A stretch of DNA of 64,000 bases. Origin: Lophium mytilinum (Eukaryota). The notes under the pieces were generated by a model, which was not told where the DNA came from, ran no database searches, and worked only from the letters and a program-made list of their open reading frames with translations. A program made the translations under genes and the position numbers. Positions 3,424 through 35,500 of this stretch are shown one piece after another (position 1 is the first letter of the stretch; the number at the start of each line of letters is the position of its first letter). The stretch spans positions 270,606 through 334,605 of the forward strand of contig MU004196.1 of assembly GCA_010093605.1 (NCBI GenBank), in the 5' to 3' direction.

Positions 3424-4875
3424 ATGATGGCTCCATCTAGGGGCATGCGCCAGCTGCAGCAAGCTTCGCACAAGCTGCTGGCAAGCGGTGGGAGGCGTGG
3501 CGGCCACAGGGGCATTACGTCGCTTGCGCAAACGATTTCCAACCCCATCCAGAGCTACATTTCCGAAAGCAACGACCCTTACCTCAACCTCTCCATTGAA
3601 CACTACCTCCTTCAGAAGTCGCCGCCCGACTCCACGATACTCTTCCTCTACACAAACCGGCCATGCGTAGTCATCGGGCGCAACCAGAACCCCTGGCTGG
3701 AGGTCAACCTGGGCATACTGAAGGCGGGGAGCTCAACGCCAGCGAGAGAGGATGGACAACCAGTCATCGGCAACGTGGACCTAGTGCGCCGTCGCTCAGG
3801 AGGTGGCACCGTCTTCCATGATGAGGGCAACGTCAATTGGAGCGTTATATGCCCACCGGCAGACTTCACGCGCGATAAGCATGCTGAGATGGTCGTGCGG
3901 GCGCTCCGCAAGCTGGGCATCGACCGGGCCAGAGTTAACGAGCGACACGACATCGTCCTAGACCAAGGCAATCGAAGTGGCAGAAGCGACCCCCAAGATA
4001 CCCATAGGACGCCATATACGGTCGACGACGGAGCTGGCCCACGGCCGCTGAAGGTATCGGGATCGGCATACAAGCTCACCCGGAACAGAGCTCTCCACCA
4101 TGGAACCTGTCTCTTGCGATCGCCAAACCTCGTGACTATACCGCAATACCTCCACTCGCCGGCAAAACCGTACCTCAAAGCACGGGGCGTCGAGAGCGTA
4201 AGCTCGCCGGTCGCGAATATCGGGTTGAGCAACCAGGCGTTTCAGAAGCAAGTTCAAGAAGAATTTGCGCGAATGTATTCCGGTGTACCAGCGGCGAACG
4301 GGGTCGACCAGTCGCTTCTCAGCACTCCTGAAATCAGCAAGGGATACGATGAGCTCAGAGTATGTCATCTCATGAACCCTCCCGTGGTCTTCAACAGGAT
4401 TGCTGACTTGATTTAGACTTTGGATTGGACGTATTCTCAAACCCCTCAATTTACTCTGTCGAGCCACCCCGAACTCGACGAAGATCCGCAAGTTTTGGTG
4501 CATGGTCGTTCAGATACATCCCCAGTACCATGGTTTCATCCAAAGGTGAGCATTCGACTTTCTAGTCTTTCGGCGGACCTAAGATCGACATAAGGTCGAG
4601 AGAGCCCTTGTGAAGACATAGCTGACCCTGTTGAGCAGATTCCAGTCATTTTTAAGGTTCAGCATGGTGCCATTGTTGACGTCGAATCATCTACAATGTC
4701 AGCTCAGAACCTCGAGGTTTTATCGACCCTGAAAGACCAAAAGATACAAGAGCTGGAGAAATTGACATACGAGCTTGAAAGAGAAGGAGACGAAAATTCC
4801 ACGATGATTCGACCTGTCGCCAACTGGCTTGAGGCGATGCTGCCAATAGTGGATGTGGCACTTTCGAAGGACTGA
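3424..4875 (+). CDS. AIM22: Mitochondrial lipoate-protein ligase A (Aim22/LIPT1 family)
   Basis: Motifs NLSIEHYL, VVIGRNQNPW, RRRSGGGTVFHDEGN and KVSGSAYK..HHGTCL. Introns 4360-4416 and about 4546-4639 join in frame through WTYSQTPQF to TGA at 4875. An alternative ATG lies at 3349. Confidence 0.9.
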
Positions 4876-4999: not shown

Positions 5000-7100
5000 A
5001 TTCCTACCTGTTACATCCAGCATATTATAGTATAGGATGAGACGTCGTGACACCGACTAATTCGAGGACGGACAGGAAGAAGGCGAGACCTCTCGTTGAA
5101 GACTTAGCAATTCTTGTTTTCAAGTCCGACAACCTCTCTGACTAATGATAATTAACGTCGATGGCCGTAGGAGCTAGCAAATACAGTGCTGAACTCTCTG
5201 AGAAAGGATGAGTGCTGGAAACTATTCATGCTATCTGAGCAGAGAACCTGTTGCCAGTCAACACGAGTCTTTGTCTTATCCACGTTAGCTTGCTTATAAA
5301 CAGTCTTCCTTTGGCATCGTATGCTATTTCGTAACCAATATGCCTTCTTTTTCCTTCCTTGTTGTCAACCTCTTTCTTTGAGAGGACAACTCTCCTCTGT
5401 CTCTTTGATGTCCATTGAACGAGTAAGACATCTCATGAGCAACTGGAATTCGTCATAACATCCAGTCTTTCGTCTTCCTTTCCATTATGCTTTTTTTCTT
5501 GCTCCCGATCATTTCCTGCTGTCAACTTTCAATTCTATGGCATCGATGCCGTCTGTGATCTTGGCTTTCAGCGTTCGTTTGATTCCAAGATACCGAAGCT
5601 CAGTCCGGAGGCCAGAACCCTATCGCGTTAGCCTAGGACCAATGATCCAGTACCAAGGAAGCCCGGACCAAAGACCAGGATTTAGTACCAGGATTCAGGA
5701 CCAGGAGTCAGGACCAGTGTTCAGGACCAATGTCCAGGAACCAGCAGCCAAGACATAAGTCTACCATGGCATTCATGTGGATGCCAATGCCGCTTCTTTC
5801 ATCAACTTCAAATCCTATTGTGCCTGCAGCTTCATCACGCCTCCAACGGCTCGAGCATTCAACAGTGTGGCCGCAATCATGTCCATTGGCTCGTACAACG
5901 TAGCGATCGTCAAGGCGTCTCGGCTGGCTATCGAGTAATGTGGAGGGGAGGATGGTCGCTTGGTGCCGCGTGCGACTGTCCTGTACGATGCCTGCCAATC
6001 GACTCCAGGCTAGTCAGTATGGCTAATCGAACGAAGTAACCAAAGAGATGAGGGATGTTAGCAAACGCTCTTCGTCTTCCACCTCAACTTCACCTTTGCT
6101 GCCCTTGACTAGGTGCTTTTTGCTGAGGCTGTCTTGCGTCTGCTCTCAGAGCACCTGGTTCGACGACTCGATTGAGGGGCCGACTCTGCTGCCATCGAAG
6201 CAGACCGAGTATCCCGAATCTCTCTTGGGCACCTCCTTGATGCAAATATGTTGGGCTCGTGTGTGAGTCTGCTGGGGGTGGCCGTATATCGTTGCTGCAC
6301 GACTCCATGGACTCATACTCTAGGCCTCTTCCATCTGTTTAATGACGCTCTCCTGTGCCATGAGATGGCTCGATGGTGTGCGGCTGATCAGTATCGACGT
6401 CCGGGGCTGCCAGCCTAGCCATCACATTCGACCGCTCGTTCGGACTGCCGTCGCTGCTCGGAAGCCGGAATCAATTCCTCGCCATCCAGTATTGCTGTCG
6501 TGCTGGAGCTAGCCTGCTGCTCAGTGGCTCATATTTTGAGGTCGACGGTGTGGAGATGGCGGATGGCAGCTTGAGCAGCAATGAAGCCGTTGAACAAATA
6601 TCACGCCTGCCTCGAGGTGTGGTGCCCGCTTTCGGCCGGGTGGTCGGCGACTCTCCGTGGACACCAAAACCTAGTTATGACTGCTGCTCTAGACTCGTCG
6701 TCCGTGCTCTGGAGCTCGCCGCTTTGCTGTGGAGGGTTGATGGTGATGGGGCTGGTGACCGAAGCGGTGGCCGCGGCAGTCTATCAACAACTTCAAGGAG
6801 ACGGACGCCCGCGACGCATCTCCACTCATTGTGGTGGACGCCTTGAGCATTGCACTGCTAAAAGCATAGTGCATCGATGAAGCTACGGATCTGGCAATCC
6901 CTACAGTAGATCGACTTCAAGCCACTGGGCAGTGTCTCAAGATATGATGTTGGGGTCTCCCTGGAAAATGCTGTGAACGAAGGAGTCCAGCTCAGGGTGC
7001 CACCCCTTCAACACTGCTATTCACATCACGGCAAGAAGACCTCTTCATGTCCTGTTGAGAGTATTCTCTGTGGAGTCTACATATCGGCAGCTATGGCGAG
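5000..7100 (-). pseudogene. Possible decayed protein-coding remnant, family unrecognised
   Basis: One minus frame from about 6780 to 5765 reads as protein-like, interrupted only by TGA/TAG stops. It is followed by an intron-like segment (GTAGAC at about 5764 ... GCTAAC...TAG at about 5621). Confidence 0.25.
5633..5755. repeat. Degenerate ~13-bp minisatellite (CAGGACCARTGTY-like), about 9 copies
   Basis: Visible units include caggaccaggagt, caggaccagtgtt and caggaccaatgtc. Confidence 0.75.
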
Positions 7101-7187: not shown

Positions 7188-9349
7188 CCCAACCCTCGCC
7201 TACGGCCAAAATGCAAAAAAAAAATGTTGAAGCAACTCTTTGATAGAGCGTGTCATCCTTAGTGCAGGGGCCATGCTGATCTTCTCTGTGTTGTTTCAAA
7301 TTGACCAAATGCCCGAAGGCGGGAGATGGTCGGAAATATACGAAATATATACCTAAGCTGCGGAAAAGTAAACAAGCACGGGCCAGCTCCATGCGGGATT
7401 TTACACCTTAGGAGCGCCTCTCGAGCACCTCAGCACGCCCGAATGGATACGTTTATTGCTTGTCACGATGCACGGAGGATATGAAGAGTCTCACGGCTGT
7501 CATAACGCTTATGATCGCGATTTGAAGCTACTCTACGCGTTTTCTGGCAACTCACTCTGCTGGAAGCCAGCCACTGGACGATTTTCACCCAGTGGGATTC
7601 CAGACTAGCGGGTTTTACTGCGCCAGCTGTCAATTCGGTCACTACACTCCTACCACTGAAATCACCGCAGTGGATGATTTGGAAAAGTGAATGTAGATGT
7701 CCCACACGGTCCCCGAGTGCGAGCACGGGCTTCGAATTGACATGGCAACTGAAGCCCATCTCTGATGCACTTCCATCAGAACGAGCATATTAAGCTTCAC
7801 TTCGTGCGACTCGAAGAAGTGCAAAGGCGTTGAAACCTGCAAACCTAGCATACCCAAAGCTCTCGCCATTGCCTGAAATTCTGGAGACGCAAGTAACGCT
7901 CAGAAGATCAATAATAATGTTGACGCCAAAACTGAATATGGAAAATGCGGTTATCCTTCTCAAAACCCACCGAATCCTGGTGGTGGGACATACAGATCTC
8001 AGGGGTACTGCTGAAAGCTCCGCTTAAGCTCAATTGGGGATTCGATCATGCCCACCGTCATTCCCTCACTGCAATTTCGTGAAATGATGGAATGGAGGTG
8101 ATAAAATAACGTCGCTCACCTCCTGACATCGGAGATCATGATGCTTCGAGCCGCTTCCCGAATGACATAGATCCCACTTCTCGACCTACCTGCAACTTCA
8201 TAGCAAACAGAGCGAATAATGTGAACGAGAGAGGGCTATGACACCCAAAGTCTCAGTTCGCAAAATCTGAAATATCGAGCAGAACCTAGAAATCTTGCAA
8301 AGGTGCTGGAAGATACGGCCCAAAACCCTACCGCCTCAGGACAAAATTTGAGGAGCTCCTATTGCCGTAACACGTCCTCGGAGGAAAGCGTGGCGGTGTC
8401 GAGCGTTGCGAAGATAGCGGAGGAGTGGACTCCCTTACCTCGCCTTCAATCTAGAGGTGACAGTCAGCAGTGCTGCCGCTTACAATATCGCCTGAGAGAC
8501 TTGATATATGGTGTTCGTGGCACTAGGAAAGCTCCAGTATTATCAGAATTCTGCAAACATGCTGAAATATCGGCCCATGGTTTCACTCGGGGCGTATGGG
8601 TTGGGATGGAAAAGACGAGCTAACGTCTTGAACTCAGTTACAAGAGCGAAGTGAAAGACAATTTACCTGGAGGAACCCACTGTTTCTGCCGTGGAGGGCA
8701 ATTCGGGTGTTACGATTTCCTAAGCCTGGACGTGAAAGCACGATAGCGGTCATTGAGACCTGAATGCTGATGACCGGCCTAAGCATTCTTGTAGCATCGA
8801 AATCAATGTAAAAGCTCGGGGACTACTTCCAAAAGACGATACAGTTGAACTCCAACCTGGGATTTCAGGGATACTCAAAAATCCCTGACAGTGCTGAGCT
8901 CTTGTCATAACATCCTTCATCTCGAACTCTACACAACTGCCCATAGGCTTTCTAACTGCAACGAAAAGTTCGACATCTAAGGGCAGATCTGATAGCAAAT
9001 TCGTTTGAGGTGTACCTCAGAACTTACAAATTCTTTGGGGTCTCTAAGCATTGCTGAGGACCCGGCAGAATCATGGTCATTATAATACCCGATTTACTCC
9101 AAACCGGCGCCTTGAACGACGACAAGCAAGACCGTACGACCATCACTCCCAAAGCTTCGGCATGTCGCAAAATCTAAAGTCTTGATCTACGATTTGCAAC
9201 CTTTGACGTCTCATATCGCAAAAGTCTCCCACTGTCTTGAAGCCACCTAGAGACATATCTCTGCTTCCAAATTGATAAGCATGTTCCTATAAATCTTACC
9301 TTTGGAGCCGCGCCTCAAAGCAAAATCCGAAGGCTCGGTTCAGCACGTC

Positions 9350-12300
9350 CGAACTTTGACATTGTCTTCCCAGATTATCTCCACGTCCAGGAGTCCTTCA
9401 AGATCATATCGCTGGCCCCCTATCAAACGCATGGGATCATGGATCTTGATTGCCATGGATTACCCACAAGGAGATGCCATGTCAAACTCACAGTTCAATC
9501 CAGCGTGTGTAGGCTCCGACATCGCACATCGAAAATTACCCACCGTCCCGAGGATCTTTGGAATGATATCATTGCTTTCAAGCCGAACGCATAGAAAGTC
9601 TTGATTTGGAGTGGTTGGAAGTATGCTTGAATGGACCCACGAAAATATCCAAGGCCAGTGTCAGAGACCTATGGATGTGACATTCAACCGCGACATTTTT
9701 GACTAGCTGGTGGCCTTCGGACGATATCATACCCTCGGAAAAAAAATTTAATATCAAACTCCGACTTGAAGAGAGAAGCAAATATCTAGGCAGCTAGAGA
9801 TCGAAATTCCTATAGTCCCAATCAAAGATGAGGGAATCTGACTTTCACCCTAGAGTTCCTAATTAGAAGGGCGACTCCCGACGCCGTTGAAAGGCAACAA
9901 TGCTATGGGGTTCAAGCTTAGAATCAAACAGAGAAGCGATTTCCACCTAATCCAGCAGCTGTATCAAGCCACAGAATCCGGACTCTTGGATTCAAGAGCA
10001 GCGAAAGTGGCATTCGGCAAGGAGAACTTTGCCCAGCTAGAGCGCCTCCAACGTTGTCAAGCAATGAAAAATGCGAAGCAATCTTGATGCAAGATCGAAG
10101 GGAAGAACCAATATCATCCGAATCATGGACCAAGTGGAGGAGCGGATTCCGAGCGCCAGAGTCGAAAGAGACCGAACATGACATTCGACGGGAAATTTTC
10201 CACCAGCTAGAGGACTTCCAACGCTGGCAAAGACCTTTCAAAGGTACAGATGCAGAGTTGCAGCTCTACATGAGAAGCATCTGCATTGAATATCTCGTCC
10301 AACTCCAGTCCTCGAAAACCAGTTTTAGATCTGCAGCCTGCAGAAATGATGTCCGACCGAAAGAATTTCGACTTTCCGAAGGAACTCGGACGTCGCCAAG
10401 CAAGATTCAAAGAAGCAGGTCCATGACGTTGGAATATACACAACTTGCCGTCTCCTCTGCTTTTCGAGGTGTTTGACCTAAGTATGAGCTAGCAAGGTCA
10501 GGCTGCAAGTGTAGGAAACATGGCATCTTAGAGGAACATTCGCGAGAAGCTGGGAGACGAGCAAGGAAACTGCAGAGCCATGGCGTTGCTCGTTTGCCAT
10601 GAATATCTCAGAAGACAAGTAGGAGGGCGTTGCAGAGCCACAAGCTCAGTCCCTAAGGGTCCCGGAAGAAGAGTTCTTGGTTCTTTTCAAGAAGTTCGCC
10701 ACATGTAATGAAGATAGCGTTTGACCGACAAAATCTCGGCTAGCTAGAGGACTCCTGACGCCGCTAAACATCTAGCAAAGGAACGAGCGTGAAGCTTAGA
10801 TTTGAAGATGAAGCAAATCTTCGGGTTACCGGGTCACCAAGACCAGATTTTGATAACAGCGGACGCCAAATCCGCCTGCACAGAATTTGCACTGCCAGCG
10901 GACCTCAGACGGCGCCCATCGTCAGCCAAAACGCGATAACGTCGGGAGGTCAGATTTAAAGGACAAGAAACATTCCATTCAACCACGGAGATCTCGACTC
11001 GTTAGAGGCTTCAGACGGCGTTACCTGCGCAGCAAAACCTACGAACGTAAGGCTCTGTTTCAGGGTAGAAGCAAACCATGTATTCAAGATTCCAGGACCC
11101 GATATCGAGACTGGAGGACGAAAGCTTCGACCAGCCGGGCTTCGAGTAGCTGGAGGACGTGCGACGCCGTTCACGTCCGGCCAAAAGACCATGAAACTTC
11201 GAAGTGCTATTCGAAGGGCGTGGAATGGAACATTCGATCGAAAATATCTCAACCAGCTAAGGGGGTTCCGACGAGGCTAGCTATATTCCAAACCTACGGA
11301 CTTAGAGCTCGATTTTGAAGCTAGAGTAGACGCCATACCTTGCGGACTCCCGGGGCTAGATTCGCAGAGCCGGGATTGCAGCATTTAAATACAAAAAGCT
11401 CAAACAGCTAGGGGGCTTCAAACGCCGTCGAAGAGCGATCAAAACGCCTCGAAACCGCCAGGTCAGATATGAAGAATCGGGAGTACAGCATTCAACTGCG
11501 TAAATTTGGCCCAGCTGGGGGACCTCAAACGATGTTAAGAGGCGATCAAAATGGCGCGAAACTGCTAGGTCAGATTTGAAGGGCTGGAAACGTAACCTTC
11601 GATCAAGAGAATGTCGACTAGTTGGCGGACCTCTAACACCGGTGACCAGTGATCAAAATGCCGTGGAAAAGGGATATCAGACTTCAAGAGTTGAAAACGT
11701 GACATTCGACCGCGAGGATGTTGACCAGTCAACGGGCTTCAAACGCCGACAAGGAGCAGTCAAAACGGCGGGACTCTGCTGGGACAGAACCAAAGAGTAG
11801 GAAACTTGACATTCAACGGCGAGAATATCGACTGGCTGGCGGACCTCGAACGCCGGTAAGGAGCTATCAAAACGGCGGGAATCTACTGGGACTGATTTGA
11901 AGAGTATGCAACGGAACGTTCGACTGTGAGGAAGTTGACTAGCTGGCGGACCTCGAGCGCCGTGGAGACTCGATCAAGACCACCAGGAAAAGAGAGGTCA
12001 GACTTGAAGAGAAGAGATCATGACATCCGCGCGGCGGTTTTTGACGTTGCCAGGGCACTCCAAACATCGCTCAAGACCGATCATAACGCCCCGGAAAAGC
12101 GAAGTCAAATCTAAAGAGGAAAATTATAACATCCTTCCGGCGATTTGTGAGGCTGTCAGGGCACCTCAAACGCCGTGCAAGACCGATCAAAACGCCTTAG
12201 AAAAGCGATGTCGAATCTGAAGAGAAGAAACTGTAACATCCTTCCGGCGATTTGTACGGCTGCCAGGGTATTCCAAACGTCGTTCACGACCGAACAAAAC

Positions 12301-13190
12301 GGCGCCAGAATGCACACTGAGATTTGAAGAGGAGGAACCAAGACATCCTTGCTGCAATTTCTCATGTTGCTGGAGAGCCCCAAACGTCGGCAACACGCGA
12401 TTCAAAGCGAGAGAAATGGCACGGTGAGAGTTGAAGAGGAGAATTCCTTACGTTGATCCGGAATTTCTTTAGGCTGCCAGGGTACCTCAAACGTCGGCTA
12501 AATGCAATCAGATCGGTGCTGAGACGGGCTGTAAGAGTTGAAGAGGAGAACTCCTTACATCACTCTGCAATTTTCTCAGGCTGCCGGAGGACCTCAAATG
12601 TCGGCGAAAGGCAATCAAAACGTTGCGGAAATGGGTTGCGAGAGTTGAAGAGTCACGAACGGGACATCCGTTCTGATTTTTCTCAGGCTGCTAGAGGCCT
12701 CCAAACGTTGAGGAAGCGCGATCAAAACGGTCTGCAAAGAGGAAGTGAAAGTTGAAGAGTTGGAAACGTGACATCCGGTCCAGTTTCTCTTAGGCTGCTG
12801 GAGGACTCCAAACGTCGATGAAACGCGGTCAAGATGATGCAGAACTGGGGTGTGGGAGATGAAGAGTCACGAACGTAACATTCGTCTTGATCTTTCTCGG
12901 GCTGCCAGAGGACTCCAAACGTTGATGAGGGGCGGTCAAGATGGTACGGAAATGGGCTGTGAGAGTTGGAGAGTTGGAAACGTGACATCGGCCTTCATTA
13001 ATCACAGGCTACCAGAGGACTCCAAGCGTTGATGAAAGGTGGTTAAAATGATGTGGAAATGGGTAGTCAAAGATGAAGAGTCGGGAACATGACATCGGCC
13101 TTGCTTTTTCTCAGGCTGCTGAAGAACCTCAAACGCTGTCAAGATCAAAGCAGAATCACGGAAGGCAAGCTCAAGTTTGAAGAGGAGAAC
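9350..13190 (+). repeat. Non-coding tandem array A: about 30 diverged monomers, 107-bp core period
   Basis: The anchor GGAC(C/T)(T/C)CAAAC recurs at 11419, 11526, 11633, 11740, 11847, 11954, 12061, 12167, 12274, 12381, 12488, 12595, 12702, 12809, 12916, 13023 and 13130. Companion motifs are GATCAAAA, TTGAAGAG and TGACATYC. Longer units continue leftward to about 9350. Confidence 0.92.
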
Positions 13191-13671
13191 AGATTGGATT
13201 CAAACTACCAAAGAAAGCAACAAAAGCAACCACCAATCCCGAACCCAACCCATCCCCTTTCTGACCCCCAAAGCTTCTAAAACCTGCACGCTGTGGTCAG
13301 TATTCACATCGCAAGAAGTCACCATCATGTCACAACATCACCATCAAGTCACTCAAGCAAGGCAAGACATGAGAGAGAGCGAGAACGAGGGTCTGTCGCG
13401 ACAAGTTAGCCCAAGAACAACCATGAGAGAACAGAGGCAACGTACCAATTCGGAGGCCACAGCGGGCCTTCTCCCGGCGCCCCCTGCTGGCGCAACCCAG
13501 CAGACACGAACAAAAGAAACATCACCAAAAACCCCGAAGGGCGGACGTGCTGTGGCCATTGTCAGCACAAGAAGCAACGAAAAAGGGGAGGATAAGAACT
13601 TACCGCGGTGCCGAGAGGGCCCGGCAACTTGTCGTCAACAAAAAAAAACGAGGACCGGAAGAGGCATGCCC

Positions 13672-14154
13672 TTAGGCAGAGGCCGATTGCTTGCCACCAG
13701 CAGCGCCGGCGGACGGAGCGGACGGGGGAGCTGGGGGCGGCGAACCCGGGGGAGTCGGGGGTGCGCGGCCGGGGGCTGGGGACGGGCCGGGGGACCGGCG
13801 CCGCTGCTCTTCTGCCACGGAGGGGGAGACCTCCGACGCTGTGGACAGTTAGTGATGTTGAAAGAAGGGACTGAAAAGGGGTAGACCACGTGACAAGAAG
13901 AGGAAAAAGGTCAAAGAAGAAGATTTTGAAGGGGTAGGACAGGAACAAACGAAGGTTGATTGGGTCAAGAAGGGATGAGAGGGGTGAGCAAGAGGAGGGA
14001 ATGGTGAAGAGAAGGACCAGGAAGGACGCGATGAGTGACAGAAAAGGAAGAGGAGGCTTACCAGGCCAGTCATGCTCCTTCTTGCGAGCTATGTCGACAG
14101 TCAGTTAAGAACAGTGGAAGAAGAGGAGGAAGAAGACTTACGAGGACGCGCCAT
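13672..14154 (-). CDS. Putative spliced 68-aa Pro/Ser-rich microprotein (3 exons)
   Basis: GCCACCATGG start. Exons 14154-14142, 14088-14062 and 13838-13672. Introns GTAAGT..CTGAC..TAG (53 nt) and GTAAGC..CTAAC..CAG (223 nt). Product MARPPRKKEHDWPASEVSPSVAEEQRRRSPGPSPAPGRAPPTPPGSPPPAPPSAPSAGAAGGKQSASA*. Confidence 0.55.
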
Positions 14155-14308
14155 GGTGGCGGGCGGTGGTGGTGGGTGTGGGTGGTGGGTGGTGTGGTGG
14201 TTGGTGGGTGGTGGTCTGGTGGTGGTCGAAAGCTTGTCGCAACGGGTGGGCAATTGGGCGCGGTGTGGGCAGCTGGGCGCGGTGTGGGCAATGGGCGCGG
14301 TGTGGGCA
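14155..14308 (+). repeat. (GGT)n-rich tract plus 3 copies of TGGGCGCGGTGTGGGCA
   Basis: 17-mer copies at 14255, 14274 and 14292; dense GG/GGG runs at 14155-14226. Confidence 0.8.
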
Positions 14309-16391
14309 GGCTTTCGGACACCTCTCGAAAAAGTGGGCGACGGCCTTTACTTATACTTGGACTCCCGCTAGCGCGGCCAATCCGTTGGGCCCCTCGGATC
14401 ACCACCCTCGCGTCTGCCTGCTGCGGCCGGGTTCAACCAGACGAGGGGCCCCACAGAACCTGATAGACCGGCCAGGAACACCCCCTGATCCTCAGGGTGA
14501 AGGAAGGAGAGGTCTAGGACATCACGATAGGAAGCCGCAGCTGGATTCTATTTGCTATCACCCTCAAATGGCCGCTCCTGGGCTGCAGCGCTGCTCCAGC
14601 TTCTGCCAGCTGGGAGGACCTCCAAGAGCTATGAGCAGCTCCAATCCGCCGCTCTCACCAGCTCAAGATGTATCTCATGGCCTCACGATGTACCTCGTCC
14701 CCCAATCCAGCTCCCCCCAGGCTTTGTGTACCCCTTGCACCTCCATATCAGCCCACCGTACCTGATCGACGTGCCTGATGCCACATCAGGGCAGACCGGC
14801 CTCGCCACCTCTCCCAATGTCCCACCCGTTCGCAGATCATGCGTCGATCTGTGGAGTCAGCCCCTCTCTGGCGCCGGCGTGAACCGAGCTCTGAAACCCG
14901 ATTGTGCCTGGACTATACTGTTTGCGGCGGGGGGAGGACGGCCAACGGGTCAGGAGGGCCAGAATGGGCGCTCAACAAGCTTCCATGTGGACGGCGGGTG
15001 AGCGAATCACGCCATAGAGGGGCTCAGGCAGGTGGGCGCGCTCGGAGGGGCTGACGTAGCTGCGAAACCGCTGGGGACTGCCGCGGGGGTGGACGGAGGT
15101 CGGGGGGCGCTGGGAGAGTCGAGAGAGAGCAGAGGAGGGTGCGAGAGGGCTCGGTTTGGTACCAGGAAGGTCTGCGAGCTCGAGAGAGGGAGGGAAGAGG
15201 CATACTATGGAGTGTGAGGGCGTGAGGGCGTGAGGGTTCGAGATCTGGTGGTGAGGGTGAAGCCGGGCTGGACACGGCACGAGCAGCGCTGGCAAGCTGC
15301 CACAATGCCCAGAGAGGAGTGAGCGGACGGTGGATATGGGCTGCGGTAATTCTGGAAGGTCATATCACACTCGGCAGCATCACAATGGTCGATTTCCAGG
15401 CCTCGGGGGTGGGAATCTGGCGTGGACGTGAGGATTTTGCGGACGCCCCGCGGAGGAGCGTTTTCGGACTGTCAACACACCCAAAACACCACGAAGACGC
15501 GCCAAAATTGCTGTGCGGAAGCCTGGGAATGACGAGATGGATGCCAGAGCAGCATATTCCTCAAAATCTCCACTGAGGCTTGCGAAATCAAGGAGAGCTT
15601 TCACCGCAGCTCCAGCGCGGCGCGGAGGTCTCGGAGGTCGCCACAAAGGTCTACAAAACACCATTCAGATCGGAATTGGATACTCACAAAGCTGGCAACT
15701 TTCGGAGGGCGTTCTGCAGAGTTTGAAATCTACCCCTTTTCGCTCTTGGCTGGAATTAGGCGTTGATATAGAACTACGTGAGAGTCTCCGCTGAAAGAGC
15801 ATTCACGGGCAAGAAAGGTCTTAGAACACTATAGAACTTCTTCTAATTCACTTCTCAACACATATTTCTTCGATGACATCTGTGAAAGCTTCCATAATCC
15901 ATCCCAAGTGCGTTCAGGGGCATCTCCGGAGCTCAGAATCTACCTACGTCATACCCTGTTGCCTCGCTCACCACCATCACTCGCTACGCACCATATCTTT
16001 CATAGCATGGCCTTCTCAATACATCGAAATCCCACGCAGATCTCATGGTCTCAGCAAATAACAATATATAAAAGCTTGCAAAGAACCCATGCATTGAATC
16101 AACTACCATTCCCCTCAGCCCCCATCCCAAAAAACGCCAAAGCTATGCAAATGCCACCCACCCAGCTCTAAGTATGCCCGTGGCCCCATATCCCCCGTAT
16201 AAGAACCCTAGGCATGGTCGAAACGATGAGACCAAAGCCAGTCAAAACTCGTAGGCCAAAGCGAAAGAGAGCAGACAGCTGATGACCAGCTGCTACCGAA
16301 TAGAAACCCCAAGAAACGCCAGTAACACCATCGTTAGAAAAGTAGGGCGAGAGCTCAGCAGCACCGTCTACCATCCCATCTCATCTCGAAC

Positions 16392-19300
16392 CTACGACAA
16401 ACTCCTCCCACCAGCGCCTCTCCCGAAGCCCTCACCTCCACTCGTCTGCCTCCGCCTTCGTACGACTGTCAGCTTGCTGGGGACGCTGGGTTGCGTCGGC
16501 GTCGAATTCTCCGGCAAGCCCTCCCGCCCTCTCTCGTCCACTCGGTCTCGATCTCTATCTCGTCTGCCGCCAGCCGTCCCTACGCTCGTTGTCCCGCTCG
16601 CCGCCCCACCCGCCAGACTCATCCGCGCAAACTTGGTCCGCGGCAGCCGGCTCTTGGTGCTACTCCCGCTGCTGCCGCCGCTGCCGCCTTGGGTCGCGTT
16701 ATTGCCGTTGGCAGTGAGGATACTAGAGGTGCTGCTCGAGCTGTCTCGGCTCGCAGGCCTATAGCCTGGTGTGCGCGCCGTGATGGACGTCGAGGCGCGA
16801 GTGAGCGGCGCAGGCGTAGTCGTGGTGTCTAGGAGCGAGAGGCTACTCAGTCCATTTTCAAGGCCTACCGCGCTCTGCGTCCTCACGTGTCGGTCACGTG
16901 TGCTGGGTGTCGGCGGCATGCTGGCGCTATGAATGAGCGACGGAGTCGGCGGTGTCATCGATGATACACCATTAGTAGAACCGTTAGTGGAGCGGCCTCC
17001 GGATGGTGGACGCGACAGGCCGCTCCGACGGGAGGAGACACGACCGACGTTTTCGTTGTCGCAGGCGCGGACGAGCTCTTCTGCCATTTGGCGGACGAGA
17101 ATGGCCGGGTCTTTCTCGGCGAGGTGGCACACAGTGTTGTAGACGCCGAAGCGTTTGATGAGACCACACGCCTCATCCGTGGCGTCGCAGATGGTACGAA
17201 GGATTCGGAGAAGGTTAAGACGCGCGACGGCGTCTTTGTGGCCTAGCTTTTGGACTGTGCGGGTGAAGATTTCGGGCACAGCGAGGGAGGCGGCGATGAG
17301 AGGGGAGAGACGCGTGAGTTTCTGCAGTGGTTCTAGCATAGATTCAAATGAGTTTTGGGAGGTGTCGGGGGACGTGTAAGCGTCGATAATAGCTGTTGAG
17401 AAAGTTGACGTCAATAGATATGCCTCCACCTTTGCGGTTTCTTCTTGAAGCCTATAACATGGTCAGCTGCATGTAGGAATCTAGGATGAGTGAGATTACG
17501 AACCATATGAAGATGGCGTCAAGCGCCGTGACCTGCCAGTTCCGGTCCGCAAGCATGCTGATGTAGAACTGCAGGCCACGATTTTCCCAGAGCTTCTTTC
17601 TCGCCACTTTGCCAGAATGTGCAAGCTCGCACAAGATTGGCAGAGCGAACTCCTTCAGTGGCCATTCCGTTTGCACAATGTCTTTGAGAATCGGAATGAC
17701 ATCGTTCAGCGCTGCTTCTTCTTGGCGCGAGCGGTTGTGGCGACATAGGTTGTACATTGTGTTGAGGATCTGGTTTGAGATCTCACGGAACAAAGGAAGC
17801 TTCTTTGAAGACCGAAGCAGATCGGTGAGGACGTCGATGGCGTTGGAATTCTGTAAGGCTTCGTGGGTGGATGACAGCATGGAGAGATTCTTGATGAACT
17901 TGAGCATTGTGACCTGGTGGTTTGGAGACATCTTGCGAAGATCCTTCAGAACACCTGAAAGCAGTTAGCGCTGAAAAAAGGTACTAATGAAAGCGCCTTA
18001 CGTTTCAATATCATGCGATCGGCCACGAGATCCTTGACGTGGCTTTCGGCTTGCGAAAAGATGAGGAAAATGTTGACGATGCGACCTTCGATAAGCTCCG
18101 ACAGCTCATCTCGTTCGTCCAGAACGCGATTGAGAACAAGCGAAAGGGGATATAGAACCGAGCTTCTCGAGAATATGCGACAGAAATCATTTTTGGGCGT
18201 TGGCCCCTAGCTATTTGTGAGTATGGAGCCAATGAAAAGAGTGGAAGACTTGAACTAACCTGAAGCTCAAAAACGCTCCATACGCCATTGACACCAATCA
18301 AGACAAGGTCACGGTCAGTATCAATATCCTCCTCGAGAAACTCGACCAGAACATTGATACCGCCACAACCGATGAACATCTGTAAAGTTAGAGTAGATGT
18401 CTGGTACATCTGCCGGACGAAAGCAGCGGCCTCTTTTCGGATCTCGCTTGGGTATTTCTTATAGGCGAAGTTGGAGATGATCGGGATACCTCCCAAAAAG
18501 GACAAACTCTCTTGAGCTTCAGCATCGTCTAGGATGATCTAATACATTATCAGAGCTTATCACTTTGTGGCACTGGCAATGATCGTACCATGTTGACTAT
18601 GCGTAATAGTCGCAAAACGACATCTCTTGGCTGTTCCGTACCAAGAATTTCGAGAAGGGGGAGCATGCCATGTGACCGTAGAACAATTGCCCTCTTTTCC
18701 GGAGACTCGAACAATACTTGTATCTGTAACATGTCAGCTGTAGTCGACTAAATTACAACCAAGTGTACTCACAAGTTGATCGGCGATGTCTAAAAGGACA
18801 TCATATGGCTGTGTAGTCTTGAGAGCGCCCACTAGGCTTTCTGTAAGCTTCGCCAGTCGATCATCCCTATCACGGGCGACATTGCTTTCAAGGTTGACAT
18901 TCTCAAGGCCTTCCTCGAGGTTGGCAAAAGGATCAGACTCGTCTTCATCGGTAATGATAAATGACGAAGACATCTTCGAGGTAATCATAGCCAAACTATT
19001 TTGATCGGACCCACTGTCGCTATCCGCTTTTGGTAAACTGGCTCCATCGTGGCCAAAGATGTCTGAGAAGTCCTCCTTGTCATCCTCAGCGTACTTCTGA
19101 ATTTCGATTTCAGACTGCGATCGTTGCATGCCCTTGCGCTCTGAGGTGTAGGAAGACGAGCGTTGTCGCATACTCCCGCCCTTCTTCGCATTGAGCGTCG
19201 AACGTGGAGCTGTCTTGAGATCAGAGGGATGAAATAGGCGAGGAGAGAAGGATTCTGCAGGGTTGGCCTAGTCCAGTTAGTGGGTGGAGACAAACATAAA

Positions 19301-21291
19301 ATCTTTCGATCATACCTGCATGGCTTGCAACTTTCTTTCGAAAGCAGACTCGTCGGTTGCAATGAGATCCGAGTAGTCCTCGACAGAGTTCTCCCTGAAT
19401 AGAACTGAAGGTCTTGCTAGAGCTGCTACCTTTCCTTTGGCTACTTGATTTACTTTGGGGATACCGCGAAGAATAGCGGTCTTAGGCTCCGTGTCGTGCT
19501 GTTGGGACGAGGATCTAGAAGTAGGAGGTTGTGGCTTGGAGCTAGAACGCTTCTTTTTAATGGGAGTCGGCGCGCGGACTGTCTCCATGTCATCGAAGTG
19601 GTCGTCCGCCGTGAATTGCAGTGGCCCGTTGACAGTAGCATTGCTTTCACCAAAAGTCATAGGCTCCTCGGTCACTGACTCAAAGGTTGCGAAGGATTTG
19701 AGGCGCTCCGAAGAGAGTAAGCCAGCGAAGTTGTCGTGCGGGCGGAGGTGAGGCAGATGAAGAGCACTAGGGCTGATGGAGGAGACGAAATCGTCGTCCC
19801 AGTTGTCGTTCGTATCAACATCTGGAGAACGATAGAGGTCCGCATTAGGCCGTGACTTTGCAACACTTAATCCTCCTTTGGCCACAGCGGGCGTCTTCAA
19901 CTGAGAAGGGGGGCTTTTCTTGGTGGCGCCAAGACTTGAGGAGAGTGGCCGAGATGCCCGACGGACCGAGCCGTTGTTCGGTGACCTCAAGGCTTCGTTC
20001 CATTCTTGAACACTCTTTACAGCTTCGTCGTACTCAGTTGGTTTCGCAGGGACGGCAGCTACCGTTCTCTTCGCGCTCAAGATCCAGGGATGCTTCAGTA
20101 ATCGTTTGGCAGATATCCGGAGGTTGGGATTCTTTTGAAAACATTGCATAAGAAAATCTCGTACAGCCTGGAGGTAAGTAAGTAAGTAAGTTTTCAATGG
20201 CCGCATCATGATCTCATTCACATACCGGAGAAGCACTGCCTGGGATAGGGGGGTGCTCGTCGTTGACTATTCGAAATAGGGCCTGCATCGGTTGGAGCTT
20301 ATGATACGGCGGTTTGCCCTCAATCAATTCGATGACTGTACACCCCAAACTCCAGATATCCGAGGATGTTGTTGCACCTGAAAGCTCAATGACTTCTGGT
20401 GCCATCCAGTACGGGGTTCCCACAACACTCGATTCGTCTAGTCCAGATGCTTTCGTGGCAACGCCAAAGTCTGCCAGCTTTACCAGACCTTCCTTGGTGG
20501 TCAGAATGTTGGCACCCTTGATATCCCTGTGGATGACACCCTGTTCGTGGAGGTAGAGGAGCCCGTGCAAGACCTGGGACATGTATAGGGCCACTAAGTT
20601 CTCCGGAAACTTTCCAAAATTCTTGCAGATTGAGTGGAGGGAGCCGTTTTCGCAGTATCTAGAGTCATGCATTAGCCACAGACCCCGAGGAGGAAGTGAG
20701 TCCAGTCATACTCTAGGATAATGTAAAGCGCATCCGTAGCCTTGACGAAACCATGATATTTCACAATGTTCGGGTGCTATCCAAAGTATCAGCAGTTGTA
20801 CCGAAAAGGGGGTATGTGGATTGGGAGCGTACGTTGAGGTTCTTTAAGAGGTCGATTTCGATCTGGACAGTAATTAGCGAAAAATCCAACACCACTAGGT
20901 ATATATTTCCATACCATGATAGTCTTCAGCTCGCTCTTAGGCAGATTTTCCATCCGGACCTGCTTGACTGCCACTGTCTCGCCCGTTCCCCAGTTTAACG
21001 CCCGATATACAGACCCAAAGGCCCCTTTGCCTAAGCAATCGCCCAATTGCTGTACAGCCCAATCATTAGCCAATGTACGTTGCGGAACTCCTGCCATTCT
21101 CCAATTCCACATACATAATCTTTCAAGCCTGCCACCTCCTGTGCTGCCCTCTGAGCATGCCCATCTCTACTCGGGGGAGCCGAAGTAGGCTTGGCTGCCC
21201 TCGACTGTGCCAGTGCTCCACTCCCATTCCCATATCCAGCCTGGCCCGTCTGCTTGCCACTCTTCGGCCTGTCGGGCGGGTGGGAGACCAT
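16392..21291 (-). CDS. sepH: Septation initiation network kinase SepH (S. pombe Cdc7 / S. cerevisiae Cdc15 family)
   Basis: N-terminal kinase with [49 protein letters not shown] and [14 protein letters not shown] motifs in the linker and an ARM-repeat C-terminal half ([25 protein letters not shown]). Multiple canonical introns. Confidence 0.95.
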
Positions 21292-30159: not shown

Positions 30160-31715
30160 ATGGAGGTAGAGGACTCCTAACGGTGACAAACCCATGGAAA
30201 AAGCGTATGGAAAGGGCTCATCTCATTTGAAGCGGCTGGAGTATGATATTCAGGTAGCGACTTTCATATTGTACTTAGACGTCCTTCACCATGTTATATA
30301 TGTGCGCAGCCTTAAGGCTTATGGGCTCTGATATGACATCTCCTTGCCCGTGTACCCCTTCATAGTCATGAAGATGGACGCAGAGGCCTCCCAACGGCGG
30401 CGAGAAGATGGAAAATGGAGGTAGAAAGCGTAGATTCAATCTAGAGCGAGCGGAAATAACATCCGTGGGCCGATCATCATGTAACACGTAGACGTCCTTC
30501 ACGAGATCCAATGCATGCGCAGCTTTACGGTCTAGAGAGCTCGATACAAGCTGTTCTATTCTCGCACGACCTCCTGCTTAGGAGGGCGTCTGCGGAGGAC
30601 TTCTGGCATGCGCAAGTGGGACGTGAAAAACACCCATTTGATTTGGAATTTACAGTACATGACATTCATTGCGTAAAAACCCTGAAACCTCTAGACGACC
30701 TCCGCATATTTTTGGATAGGCGCAGCTTCATCGTCGCAAGGGCTAAAGTCAAACGTTGCTATTCTTACATTGCTTCTCGACCACAGCTATACATTAAAAG
30801 GGCTCCTGACACTGGCAAGCATATAGAAAAAGGCTATAGAAAGCACGCATCTAATTCCAGGGCTCTAAACTATAACATCTACATATTTGCCATTTTGAAA
30901 GGTTTAGATGGCCTTCGCGTAATTTTCCAGATCTACACTTTCACGATAAAGAGCGTCTACTTTGAAGTGCATTTATTGTTGTATTCGTTACGCTCTAGAA
31001 GCCATCTCTAGAGGACTCCTAACACTAGCAAGTAGCTAGAAAAACGGCGTAGAAAGCACGCGCCCAGTTCAAGTCGTCTAGAACATGACATCCAAATTGG
31101 CTCTATCTTGAAATGTCCAGGCAGACTTCATGTACTTTTCCAAATGAGCAGTTTCACAACAAAGGGCGTGTAGTCTAAAGTGTCTTTGTTACTGCATTAC
31201 CTCAGGTCCGGAAGACGTCACCGGAGGACTCCTAGCATTGGCAGGTGTATGAAAAAGGGTCGCAGAAAGTACATGTCCAATTCCAGGTATCTGGAACATG
31301 ACATCGACGTAGTCGCCAGTTTGAACTGTTCAGAAGGCCTATACGAGATTTCACGTGCGCGAAAAATCGCCATTGCGAAGGCCTAATTCTGCGCATCCGG
31401 GATATAACATCCATGGGACTATTATTCTGATACCTTTGGGAGGACTTTACAAGATTGCACATATGCGCAATATCGCAGTTACGAGGGTTCAATCTAACGC
31501 CTTCAATATATGACATCCATAGGGTCTCTATCTTAGTACCTCCAGAAGGATTTCACGAGATTGCACTTACGTGCAAAATCACGATGATGGGGACCCAATT
31601 TGACGCATCCAAAAAATGACATCAGCAGAGTGAAAATCACGAAACATCTTGACTGGCATCACGCAATTTTCCACATGCGCAATGTCACAATCAAGTGAGT
31701 TCAATTTGAAGCAGA
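30160..31715 (+). repeat. Non-coding tandem array B: 213-bp dimers followed by 106-bp monomers, same family as array A
   Basis: The T(G/A)ACATC-like anchor occurs at 30244, 30457, 30660, 30873, 31086, 31299, 31405, 31511 and 31617. GAGGACTCCTAAC-like motifs occur at about 30169, 30383, 30798, 31011 and 31224. Confidence 0.88.
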
Positions 31716-32558: not shown

Positions 32559-35500
32559 GGTGACGGGACGGATGGTGCTTGTGAGTGGGGTAATAGACAG
32601 TAGGTTCGTAGAAGGCTTGTAGGTGAGCAGCGCTGTGTTGGAGAATGAGGTGGATGTTGTAGGTGGAGGGTGAGCGGGCTGTCTAGAAGAGGGAGGAAGA
32701 TGTTGTAAGAAGGCGGGTGAGCCGTCGGGGGGTAGCGAGGAATCTTCTGGAGGCGGTGAAGTAATGTGAACGCGGGCTTATACAGAGCTGGAAATTCGGC
32801 TCCCGCGTCCTGCTCTGGTGACGAAGTAGTAGACGATTGATACAATGCTGCCGATGATGAGCAACGCGAGTATTATGTACGCGAAGATGAAGAGGGCAGC
32901 CATATGGGAAGACGTCTTTTGAATGATGTGTGCAGTTGTGGTGATGTTGTGGAGGCGAGAGCGAGAAGCAGATGATATATTTGACTGACCGCCCAACCGC
33001 ACGCGAGACCACGGTGCGGGCCGCACCGCCTTCTTGAGCAGCCTCTACACTTGGCTGCCACTGTTTGCGGTGCCCCGAGGCATTTTCGGAATTCTGATCT
33101 GGATACAAGCCCAGCAGATTGAACAGTTGTTATACTCGACAGGCCACACCAGACAGCGGCAGAAGAGTGTACACATATTGGAAGTATGGCGCACCGCTCC
33201 AGGCCTCTATCGGTGCTTTACACGCTTCTGACAGGATGTACGGATATCTAGACCGAGATACTGTACGGTAGCACAAGGGCTGCGCGCTTCAATCCCGAAT
33301 ACATCCACGCTGCTGACAGACCTAGTAGAATCTCTGCGCATCCCAACCTGCAGTGAGCTCTTGAGCACCTCCTCTAGACTTTCAAGCCTTCTTCGAGCCT
33401 CCTCGAGGACAGGGTGCAGCTTCAAGCCCTCCTCGCCTTCCGATCGATGCCCCTCGCGCCACGGCGCCCCGCCGACACGGCGAAGTCGACATGGGACCAC
33501 CAAAAGCAGGGACTAGAGATACTGGCACGATCCAGCTTGCGAAATTGATGGCGGAGCATGGTCATAGAGACGGCATTCGTCCCGCGGGGCAATGCGATGG
33601 CGACAGCGCGCTCCGGCGACAGGACTATGGTTGGCGACTGCTGCGGCGGAGTATATCAGGCATGGCGGCCACCTTTAAGACGGCTATCTTGTAGGGGGTC
33701 GACGGTATACAAACGTGTTTGGAAAGCCAATTTGAGAGCCGAGATGACTTATGGACATAGGTCTCGCAGATCCCCCTAGAAGACCGAGCTGACAAGCGCT
33801 CAAGACCCATCCAAGTAGCCGTCATACTTCAAGCGCTGAAGAACTTGCCCTAAAACAACCCCCACACGCGATGCCGACTTGCAGCATCGGAAAATGGGAC
33901 CACATTGAGGATATTGGGATCCCGGGTTTGGACGCCACCAGCCGGGACGCTTCAAGAATAAACAAAGAGCGGGAGAGTTTGTTCCAGAAGTAAAAAACAT
34001 AAAGAGCAGATTATAAAGAAGAGACAGAGATGTAGAAGCAAAGCAAGCGGAGAAGCGGGCAAATTATGATGCTGAAATGAAAAAGAAAGACGAAAGCCGG
34101 TACCGTTATGGGACGTATGCCCTCTCGTAGCTCCCTGACATCCACTTTGGGCTATCTGACAGCTTTCAGCGACCTATGAGAAATGCCATACTACATGATC
34201 ATCTTACTTTTGGAGGGTTCAGCGTCTCAGTCTCAATCTCTCTAGTCCTCAATCGTCTAGACCATCCTAGGATCCTACAGGATTCTTAGCCTCCTAGCGT
34301 TAATGAGATGGCAAGAGAAGGAATCGCACCGTGGTGATACAAACGGCATGAAGGAGCGGAATGACAGCTTAGTGGAGCTTTGCTATGGCAGGGCCGTTGG
34401 GGTTGATAGCCCCTGATTCTTGGGATGGGACATGGTCACGTGACTCATGTCCAGAGTCCAATCCTCAGGTAAAACACCAAAATGGCCTCTGTGCTTAAAG
34501 AATCCTCAACAAAACGTCCCGGCCAGGCGCATGGAATCTATTCGTGAAACTTAAGACCAAAGGTGTACGTGCACTCCGCTGTGTCAGTCTCGCTCTGTAA
34601 GCATAGCCGCTTTCTCATGCTGCCTCAGATGCTCAGTCATCTCACAAGCTTACTTCCTCCAGGACGCAGAGACCGGAAGAGATCAACGCTACCTTAAAAG
34701 CCTTTTGGCAGAGTCCTCGTTCATGGTGAAGAAGGAGGAAAAGGGATGGCACCTGGGTCGAAATAAAGTTCCCCGCCATTGTCTCGCTTGCCCCTGACTG
34801 GTACCACGGCCCGTTCGCATGCAGAGCCGTGGCACGCTTCGGTAATTGCCATGCAATATATGTGTATTGCGTTCGCCTGGGTTCCGGTGTCGATCTCATC
34901 TCACTCAGCTCCTCATCTACACTCCGTTCCTAAAGACGATCAATCCAGCGTGCTTTCAAAGACAAATAGAATATGGTCCAGGTCTCTAGATGAAAACCGC
35001 CGGATTGATGGACTTCCAGCTAGACCCAGGGACAGAGACATTATTTGTAACCAGCAATACGACATCGGGAGCTGTGGGAAGTCCCCCTGTGAAGACTTGG
35101 TGAGGTCAATCTAGCTCGGTGTATATGCATTCGCAATCCATGGATGTACCAACTCTTCAGGCCATGAAGGTCGCGCCGAAAACCTTTTGTCGGCTGTCTT
35201 CCAATTTGCTTGATAGCTCCGGATCTGAGCCTAGGCTGGAGGTTTCCATGGTCAAACCCTTCCCACCAAGTGGCTAGAAAACTGCATCGCATGGCTAAAT
35301 ATCTGAATTCTTTACGTTGGATGACCTTCCATGATAGTCCGCCTTCTATTGTCCAGGAATGGGACTTGGACTGGTACCTATCCGATATGGGATCTTCTCC
35401 TTTCTTCTCTCCTTTCTATCCTCCATTCGTCAATCGACCCGGACAAACTGTATATCTTTTGAAAATTGTTTTAATGCTCGCTCGGATTGTCTCATTGCAG

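Follow-up and report, generated by a model that had tools for sequence, protein, structure and literature searches.

Fungal MITEs of the Tc1/mariner type include mimp of Fusarium oxysporum (PMC3599309) and the TA-flanked EFT families of Epichloe (PMC3227409), both considered here from excerpts of the respective papers. A review (PMC6947457) lists MITE-derived satellites and, in the part available to us, makes no mention of helical phase. For Tetris TIR-220 of Drosophila virilis and for Galileo, repeats internal to the TIRs have been proposed to serve as additional transposase sites (PMC4079207, in excerpt). The sizes of the IESs of Paramecium have been read, in the available section of PMC3464196, as a natural helical-twist experiment on a transpososome, and the available section of a paper on Sleeping Beauty (PMC5224488) does not discuss spacing or helical phase. 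In the open full-text literature, searched without targeting MITE length periodicity, nothing was found on the repeat family described below or on helically stepped fungal repeat monomers.

The genome of Lophium mytilinum, a wood-dwelling dothideomycete of the Mytilinidiales, contains a repeat family that can be set against each of these systems, as far as the excerpts of the cited papers describe them. Like mimp and EFT, it has a non-coding element of ~220 bp with TIRs of ~28 bp and TA flanks, and many dispersed, degenerate copies with no intact parent seen; the behaviour of the Lophium elements is that of ordinary Tc1/mariner MITEs of fungi (PMC3599309, PMC3227409, PMC4112212). Unlike mimp and EFT, which are described there without tandem arm arrays and without helical length steps, the inner motif of the Lophium element is arrayed, with up to 57 units in the longest arrays. 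As in Tetris and Galileo, tandem repeats internal to the TIR have become kb-size satellite-like arrays, with the flanking end present or absent; Tetris is described with monomers of a single length that are ~94% identical, and helical phase is not mentioned, whereas Lophium units recur in 13 or more lengths, separated by one turn or several, and are 45-70% identical (PMC4079207). Like the IESs of Paramecium, the Lophium repeats are transposon-derived DNA with length peaks at every helical turn. IESs, however, are excised as single segments; their period is 10.2 bp, they lack a conserved internal motif and they are selected through obligatory excision (PMC3464196), whereas the Lophium arrays consist of direct tandem units with a long motif and a period of 10.6, and show no sign of excision. 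The element also resembles the IR/DR structure of Sleeping Beauty, in which each end carries an inner, non-cleaved site and an outer, TA-abutting site (PMC5224488); in contrast to Sleeping Beauty, the homology between the inner motif and the outer TIR is suggestive only and not significant in Lophium, and the two arms differ in length (44 and 76 bp).

The window analysed here is a stretch of 64,000 nucleotides (C16:270606-334605) of the 43-Mb assembly of 49 contigs that was used for the genome scans. Its features relevant to the family and its surroundings are, in window positions:

3424-4386, lipoate-ligase frame; 99% identical to a Lophium mytilinum protein and 93% to one of Mytilinidion resinicola
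7221..7320, minus strand, U6 snRNA gene; adjoins the array, outside the motif family
7400..8868, no strand assigned, possible additional decayed tract; anchors there at chance level
8869..11401, plus strand, degenerate long-unit section of the array; 149-194 bp per unit, with two units of 106-107 bp among them
11402..13155, plus strand, regular section of this array; anchors, 17 in all, from 11419 to 13130
11409..11444, plus strand, example of the core motif; ~22 bp around CAAACG and an A-run 22-25 nt downstream of the anchor
30161..31260, plus strand, another array of the motif family; anchors 30177, 30391, 30806, 31019, 31232
33048..33169, no strand assigned, solitary MITE-like 122-bp element; back-to-back motifs 83 bp apart

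The main array is non-coding, extends from ~8870 to 13155 and lies between the U6 snRNA gene and transcribed DNA at 13.8-15.9 kb, where RNA contigs of run X3 cover 13810-14139 and 14205-15864. No contig of this run, in which the contigs skip the introns of the neighbouring kinase gene, spans the array, which does not imply that the array is silent. Run X1 matches 7400-21000 without differences and may itself be the source of the assembly DNA. By eye, a possible small spliced gene with a short proline-rich product and an ATG at 14154 was seen at 13700-14154 on the minus strand. A low-depth contig of run X3 matches window positions 11406-11454 and runs on into sequence of the C14 array, a hint that this array, which is related to that of the window, is either transcribed or present as DNA in run X3. 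A coding or exon-intron repeat was rejected: 107 is no multiple of 3, and neither a long frame nor a conserved splice signal was seen. A link to U6 was likewise rejected, as no array was found within 1.5 kb, the full reach of this test, of 19 other U6 copies, which have at most three scattered motif matches in their flanks. The genome contains at least 21 U6 snRNA copies, clustered on contigs C4, C1, C19 and C23; several have a spliceosomal-type intron after the ACAGAGA box, and in several (L018, L019, L021 and L022) this box is altered while the TATA and downstream B-box-like signals are kept.

Three models served to place the repeat units of the window: a profile HMM built from its own monomers, a core PWM 46 columns wide and a profile of 90 columns, with the C of CAAACG as anchor. 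The PWM and profile anchors lie at 8885, 9045, 9397, 9557, 9718, 9878, 10048, 10218, 10387, 10561, 10755, 10906, 11012, 11161, 11268 and 11419, giving steps of 160, 352, 160, 161, 160, 170, 170, 169, 174, 194, 151, 106, 149, 107 and 151 bp, and the HMM steps from 9653 rightwards are 161, 169, 171, 168, 174, 194, 151, 107, 148, 107 and 151. The initial annotation had read a series of steps between 9357 and 11419 from the letters, and this series is real: the 13 objectively placed steps from 9397 on agree with it within 1-2 bp per step. The anchors at 9397 (per-position p of 3e-4) and 9557 (3e-3) are weak, and at these two positions and at 10561 the core is lost and was missed by the core PWM. 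A continuation of the array to the left, which had been envisaged, holds for the two anchors at 8885 and 9045 and gives way to chance-level matches at 7.4-8.8 kb. The regular part contains 15 steps of 107 and one of 106 bp, with a unit identity of ~57%, and the second array of the window has steps of 214, 415, 213 and 213 bp. A Rayleigh test on the window yields p ~0.001 for the 13 raw steps and 0.04 for the six length classes, and the window alone is modest evidence of helical phasing.

For the genome-wide analysis, a PWM was started from 16 units of the window and refined by iteration on the window plus 86 loci of 10 kb, 80 of which had been picked by motif matches, resulting in 725 matches compared to 37 on reversed sequence. 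The 446 steps of 50-330 bp outside the window cluster at 65, 97, 107-108, 129, 140, 150-151, 161, 170, 180, 203, 213, 226 and 235 bp. When these are reduced to 167 locus-level length classes, with lengths from 65 to 235 bp and multiples, the best period is 10.62 with R=0.56, compared to a largest R of 0.32 among 2000 uniform permutations; without 107 and its multiples, 129 classes give R=0.50. The independent length events are fewer than 167, because the classes share descent, and arrays with both orientations were counted on both strands. A line of 10.585n+1.78 was obtained from the 68 classes that occur two or more times in a locus, and the resulting rule of 10.6n+1.8 bp spans n = 6 to 22. 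With the window included, 84% of the 450 steps of 55-245 bp lie at most 1.5 bp off the line, compared to 28% expected, and the six steps (152, 321, 204, 205, 195 and 119 bp) of two tandem arrays of back-to-back pairs found apart from the fitted loci (C12:1486836-1487986 and C10:709475-709667) are all within 2.7 bp of it. Whole-genome pattern counts, which show that the main length classes dominate and no more, are 49 for a step of 107/108 bp (reversed-pattern control 15) and 9 (8) for 112/113 bp, 52 (8) for 150/151 bp and 8 (7) for 155/156 bp; for inverted pairs they are 22 (7) in phase and 8 (10) half a turn longer. Genome-wide, the phase rule is well supported, and we regard it as close to certain.

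Measured against the line fitted on other loci only, nine of the 13 window steps fall within 1.5 bp and 12 within 2.5 bp; the step of 174 bp is off phase by 2.9 bp and the interval 10387-10755 by 4.5 bp. With period and phase fixed from the other loci, the window classes give p=0.009, or p=0.025 without the 107 class. The proposal that surviving length changes keep rotational phase finds much stronger support across the genome than in the window from which it was derived. The accompanying description of the steps as multiples of 10.7 bp is correct as to helical stepping and needs revision as to exact multiples, the period being 10.6 with an offset of ~+1.8 bp per unit. A polarised array, also proposed from the window, was found there and in the three longest arrays, in which longer units lie upstream with respect to motif direction; over all arrays the tendency is weak (18 versus 9, two-sided p ~0.12, calculated by hand). 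A centromeric repeat was rejected, as contigs C16, C17, C19, C23 and C12 each contain several arrays.

The C14 array is interrupted by an N run (L041 ~5795-5895), and one step there is uncertain. Near an array on C23, a 101-bp tandem repeat was observed (L004 9549-9851; three copies, 90% alike) that lacks the motif and has an out-of-phase period. A metagenome scan with a three-motif pattern yielded 74 loci, which the PWM identifies as unrelated tandem repeats, a result that says nothing on related fungi: 71 have at most two matches per strand, and three have 5-8 matches with periods of 30-40 bp or multiples. The 33 periods of at least 95 bp among these loci, hand-picked and with duplicates dropped, show no phase (R=0.13).

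The derivation of the units from a MITE, which was not part of the initial annotation, follows from the arrangement of inverted motifs. Back-to-back motif pairs within 130 bp are spaced by 72-74, 82-84 or 104-107 bp in 63 of 70 cases. The 106-bp pair forms the core of a 227-bp element, which has TIRs of ~28 bp starting with CAGT and is flanked by TA; 37 of the 40 non-self matches scored for it (of 299 candidates) have both ends in common at 77-97% identity, and sharp common ends were shown for this element only. The distance from motif to TIR end is 44 bp on one side and 76-79 bp on the other in 40 of 47 cases. Complete paired ends are present in 12 long elements, four with TA, a possible target-site duplication, on both sides and seven more with TA on one side; three of the 12 are off phase (219, 221 and 175 bp). 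Among the shorter pairs, TA is found on both arms in 8/14 of those spaced by 83 bp and 3/33 of those spaced by 73 bp. The motif ends in GTG and then TA (+20) in 18 of the 28 arms of 83-bp pairs and 23 of the 66 arms of 73-bp pairs, compared to 5% of 596 other matches, which indicates that these pairs represent elements of 122 and 112 bp, respectively. The 122-bp element at 33048..33169 has CAC...GTG ends with TA on each side. The motif is terminal in the 112- and 122-bp elements and an inner, subterminal site in the 227-bp element, and the core motif at 11409..11444 is a candidate TIR-type transposase-binding site with a decayed terminal GTG-TA.

Two array lineages can be related to this element. 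In the C6 array, the MITE HMM matches nearly all units with E-values down to 2e-20; in this array and in the upstream part of the C14 array, the middle and right arm of the 227-bp element are repeated in tandem, and the C14 array terminates in an intact TIR plus TA. The lineage of the window, which also includes the 107-mers of C14 and arrays on C17, C12 and C3, is in register with the left arm of the MITE from -60 to -17, a match that lies outside the PWM core and takes in the TGACAT block. Column shuffles gave p=0.001 for this left-arm match in the regular part and p=0.002 in the long window units; the match to the right arm is not significant. The whole-element MITE HMM matches only the core in the window (best E=0.018), the window array has a TIR at neither end, and window block C is not significantly similar to the outer TIR (p=0.28), so that its reading as a TIR relic was rejected. 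The middle segment is common to the two lineages but lies the other way round relative to the motif, from which we infer that the arrays arose from the inverted element and not the reverse. A MITE origin of the arrays is likely, and on this reading the window array, one of many in this genome, arose when one arm of a Tc1/mariner-type MITE was amplified in tandem.

All 14 DDE_3 matches in the genome contain stop codons. Five of these 14 loci were examined for an autonomous partner, with the DDE_3 family as the only family considered, and in none of the five did either the motif or the TIR score above threshold. A DDE_3 element at L194 764-2058 has an inverted repeat of 52 nt without a mismatch, TA and CAC...GTG ends included, and only one stop in the matched domain; its ends differ internally from the motif family.

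What keeps the unit lengths in phase can be approached through the protein expected to read the motif. The element's transposase, or a protein descended from it, would bind the motif, and neighbouring sites less than ~250 bp apart would permit joint binding or looping only when located on the same helix face; because of this need for a common face, in-phase length variants alone would have been retained and amplified. A comparable argument, by which sites nearer to each other than roughly a persistence length have to share one face, has been made for IES sizes (PMC3464196). Such transposase geometry is, in our analysis, the best single account of the phasing, with a probability of roughly 0.55, and the constraint may have acted only on the selfish elements. 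The core is more conserved than the spacer in 19 of 20 array groups, which is partly built in since units were found via the motif. Indels per substitution amount to 0.029 in all arrays, 0.010 in the window (7 per 678 substitutions) and 0.16 in the U6 flanks; in BLAST alignments the ratio is 0.043 with and 0.057 without the motif, the latter from 14 alignments. Indel/substitution ratios in yeast mutation-accumulation lines are of the same order as those of the arrays, so that the arrays give no clear sign of small-indel suppression or of selection at the present day.

Alternatively, the MITE arm could be a rotational nucleosome-positioning sequence in which length changes either arise at the positions exposed once per turn or are kept because the bending pattern survives them, a reading that we consider doubtful. 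The AA+TT profile about the motif has a period of 10.8, and the best A/T period of 10.7-10.8 lies above that of nucleosomal DNA (10.2-10.4). The A/T dinucleotides of the 73-bp pairs have their maxima half-integer numbers of turns away from the centre, which is the canonical WW/SS phase, and 73 bp is half of a core particle; the sign of this phase, however, is a one-in-two outcome, and spacings of 73 and 83 bp are accounted for as MITE lengths. Factor spacing has been found to take a ~10-bp periodicity from nucleosomes (10.1101/240598, in excerpt), and the available section of PMC13407906 defines the WW/SS pattern without these positions. The base-specific core, with up to 1.6 bits per column, looks like the product of sequence-specific reading, and units of 65-129 bp are too short for one nucleosome each. 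The initial annotation had tied the units of 160-171 bp to a nucleosome repeat length; this link fails, because units of 65, 97, 107 and 129 bp are common and, like others up to 235 bp, obey the same rule.

Host co-option offers a further reading, in which the MITE-derived sites would have become arrays where a chromatin-organising host protein docks between convergent genes, with host selection keeping motif and phase today. Core and phase persist in units of 45-70% identity, and a RIP signature is absent from the arrays. Predicted coding sequence, comprising 37% of the DNA, contains only 20 of the 725 motif matches, and the 3' ends of genes point at the arrays in 37 of 48 flanks, both counts being based on a crude coding model; tolerated insertions would likewise avoid coding sequence and promoters, and the metagenome scan yielded no orthologous array of another species. 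The fullest form of this reading, that domesticated MITE ends constitute genome-wide phase-locked docking arrays of perhaps more than 1000 sites, at which a transposase-derived host protein loops or positions chromatin between convergent genes, is unlikely, as is host co-option as a whole.

Steps of this kind would arise without selection if an ancestral subrepeat of 11 or 22 bp underwent slippage or unequal exchange. In its favour, the best self-match lags of the 107-mer are 22, 44 and, lower, 11 (mean match 0.306 and 0.286), and some long window units contain a second copy of block C, clear in three of 11. The cleanest differences in unit length, as seen in the 11 best-aligned of 26 unequal unit pairs passing the filter, are single blocks of 11, 11, 43, 44, 81 and 84 bp, and of the 17 blocks that change unit length, only two reach a resemblance of 50% to a flank. 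For the ~21-bp subrepeat that the initial annotation had proposed to check, the 107-mer shows a weak self-similarity at lags 22, 44 and 11, and with self-similarity this weak and 15 of the 17 blocks not being copies of their flanks, the phase claim stands against slippage. Furthermore, one and the same 11-bp block is absent from two unrelated array lineages, and inverted-motif spacings and motif-to-TIR distances are stepped as well, leaving slippage very unlikely.

Recombination-independent DNA-DNA pairing of the RIP type through short matches once per helical turn is extremely improbable: RIP recognises sequences of 36% identity in which triplets match with a periodicity of 11 or 12 bp (PMC4858203, in excerpt) as opposed to the array period of 10.6, the fixed inverted spacings would be left unexplained, and the RIP pattern is absent, with C to T changes at CpA of 0.11 compared to 0.16-0.21 in other contexts and a TpA/ApT of 0.54. 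As the arrays carry no such signature, RIP was also rejected as the source of their indel-free divergence. An array of structured RNA or ssDNA hairpins was rejected as well, the U6 gene being the only Rfam match in the window; pairs within the inner palindrome of the motif have a mutual information of at most 0.03 and no covariation.

Satellite-like arrays derived from transposon ends were already known, and the Lophium arrays, with unit lengths sampling most turns from 6 to 22, constitute a natural helical-twist experiment. They provide a handle on the limits to MITE size and satellite monomer length, which would be set by protein geometry and not by nucleosome repeat length. If the docking arrays of the co-option reading were real, they would represent a type of sequence-encoded, chromosome-organising element as yet undescribed in filamentous fungi, and if the host maintains the phase constraint today, this would point to an undescribed element organising fungal chromatin.
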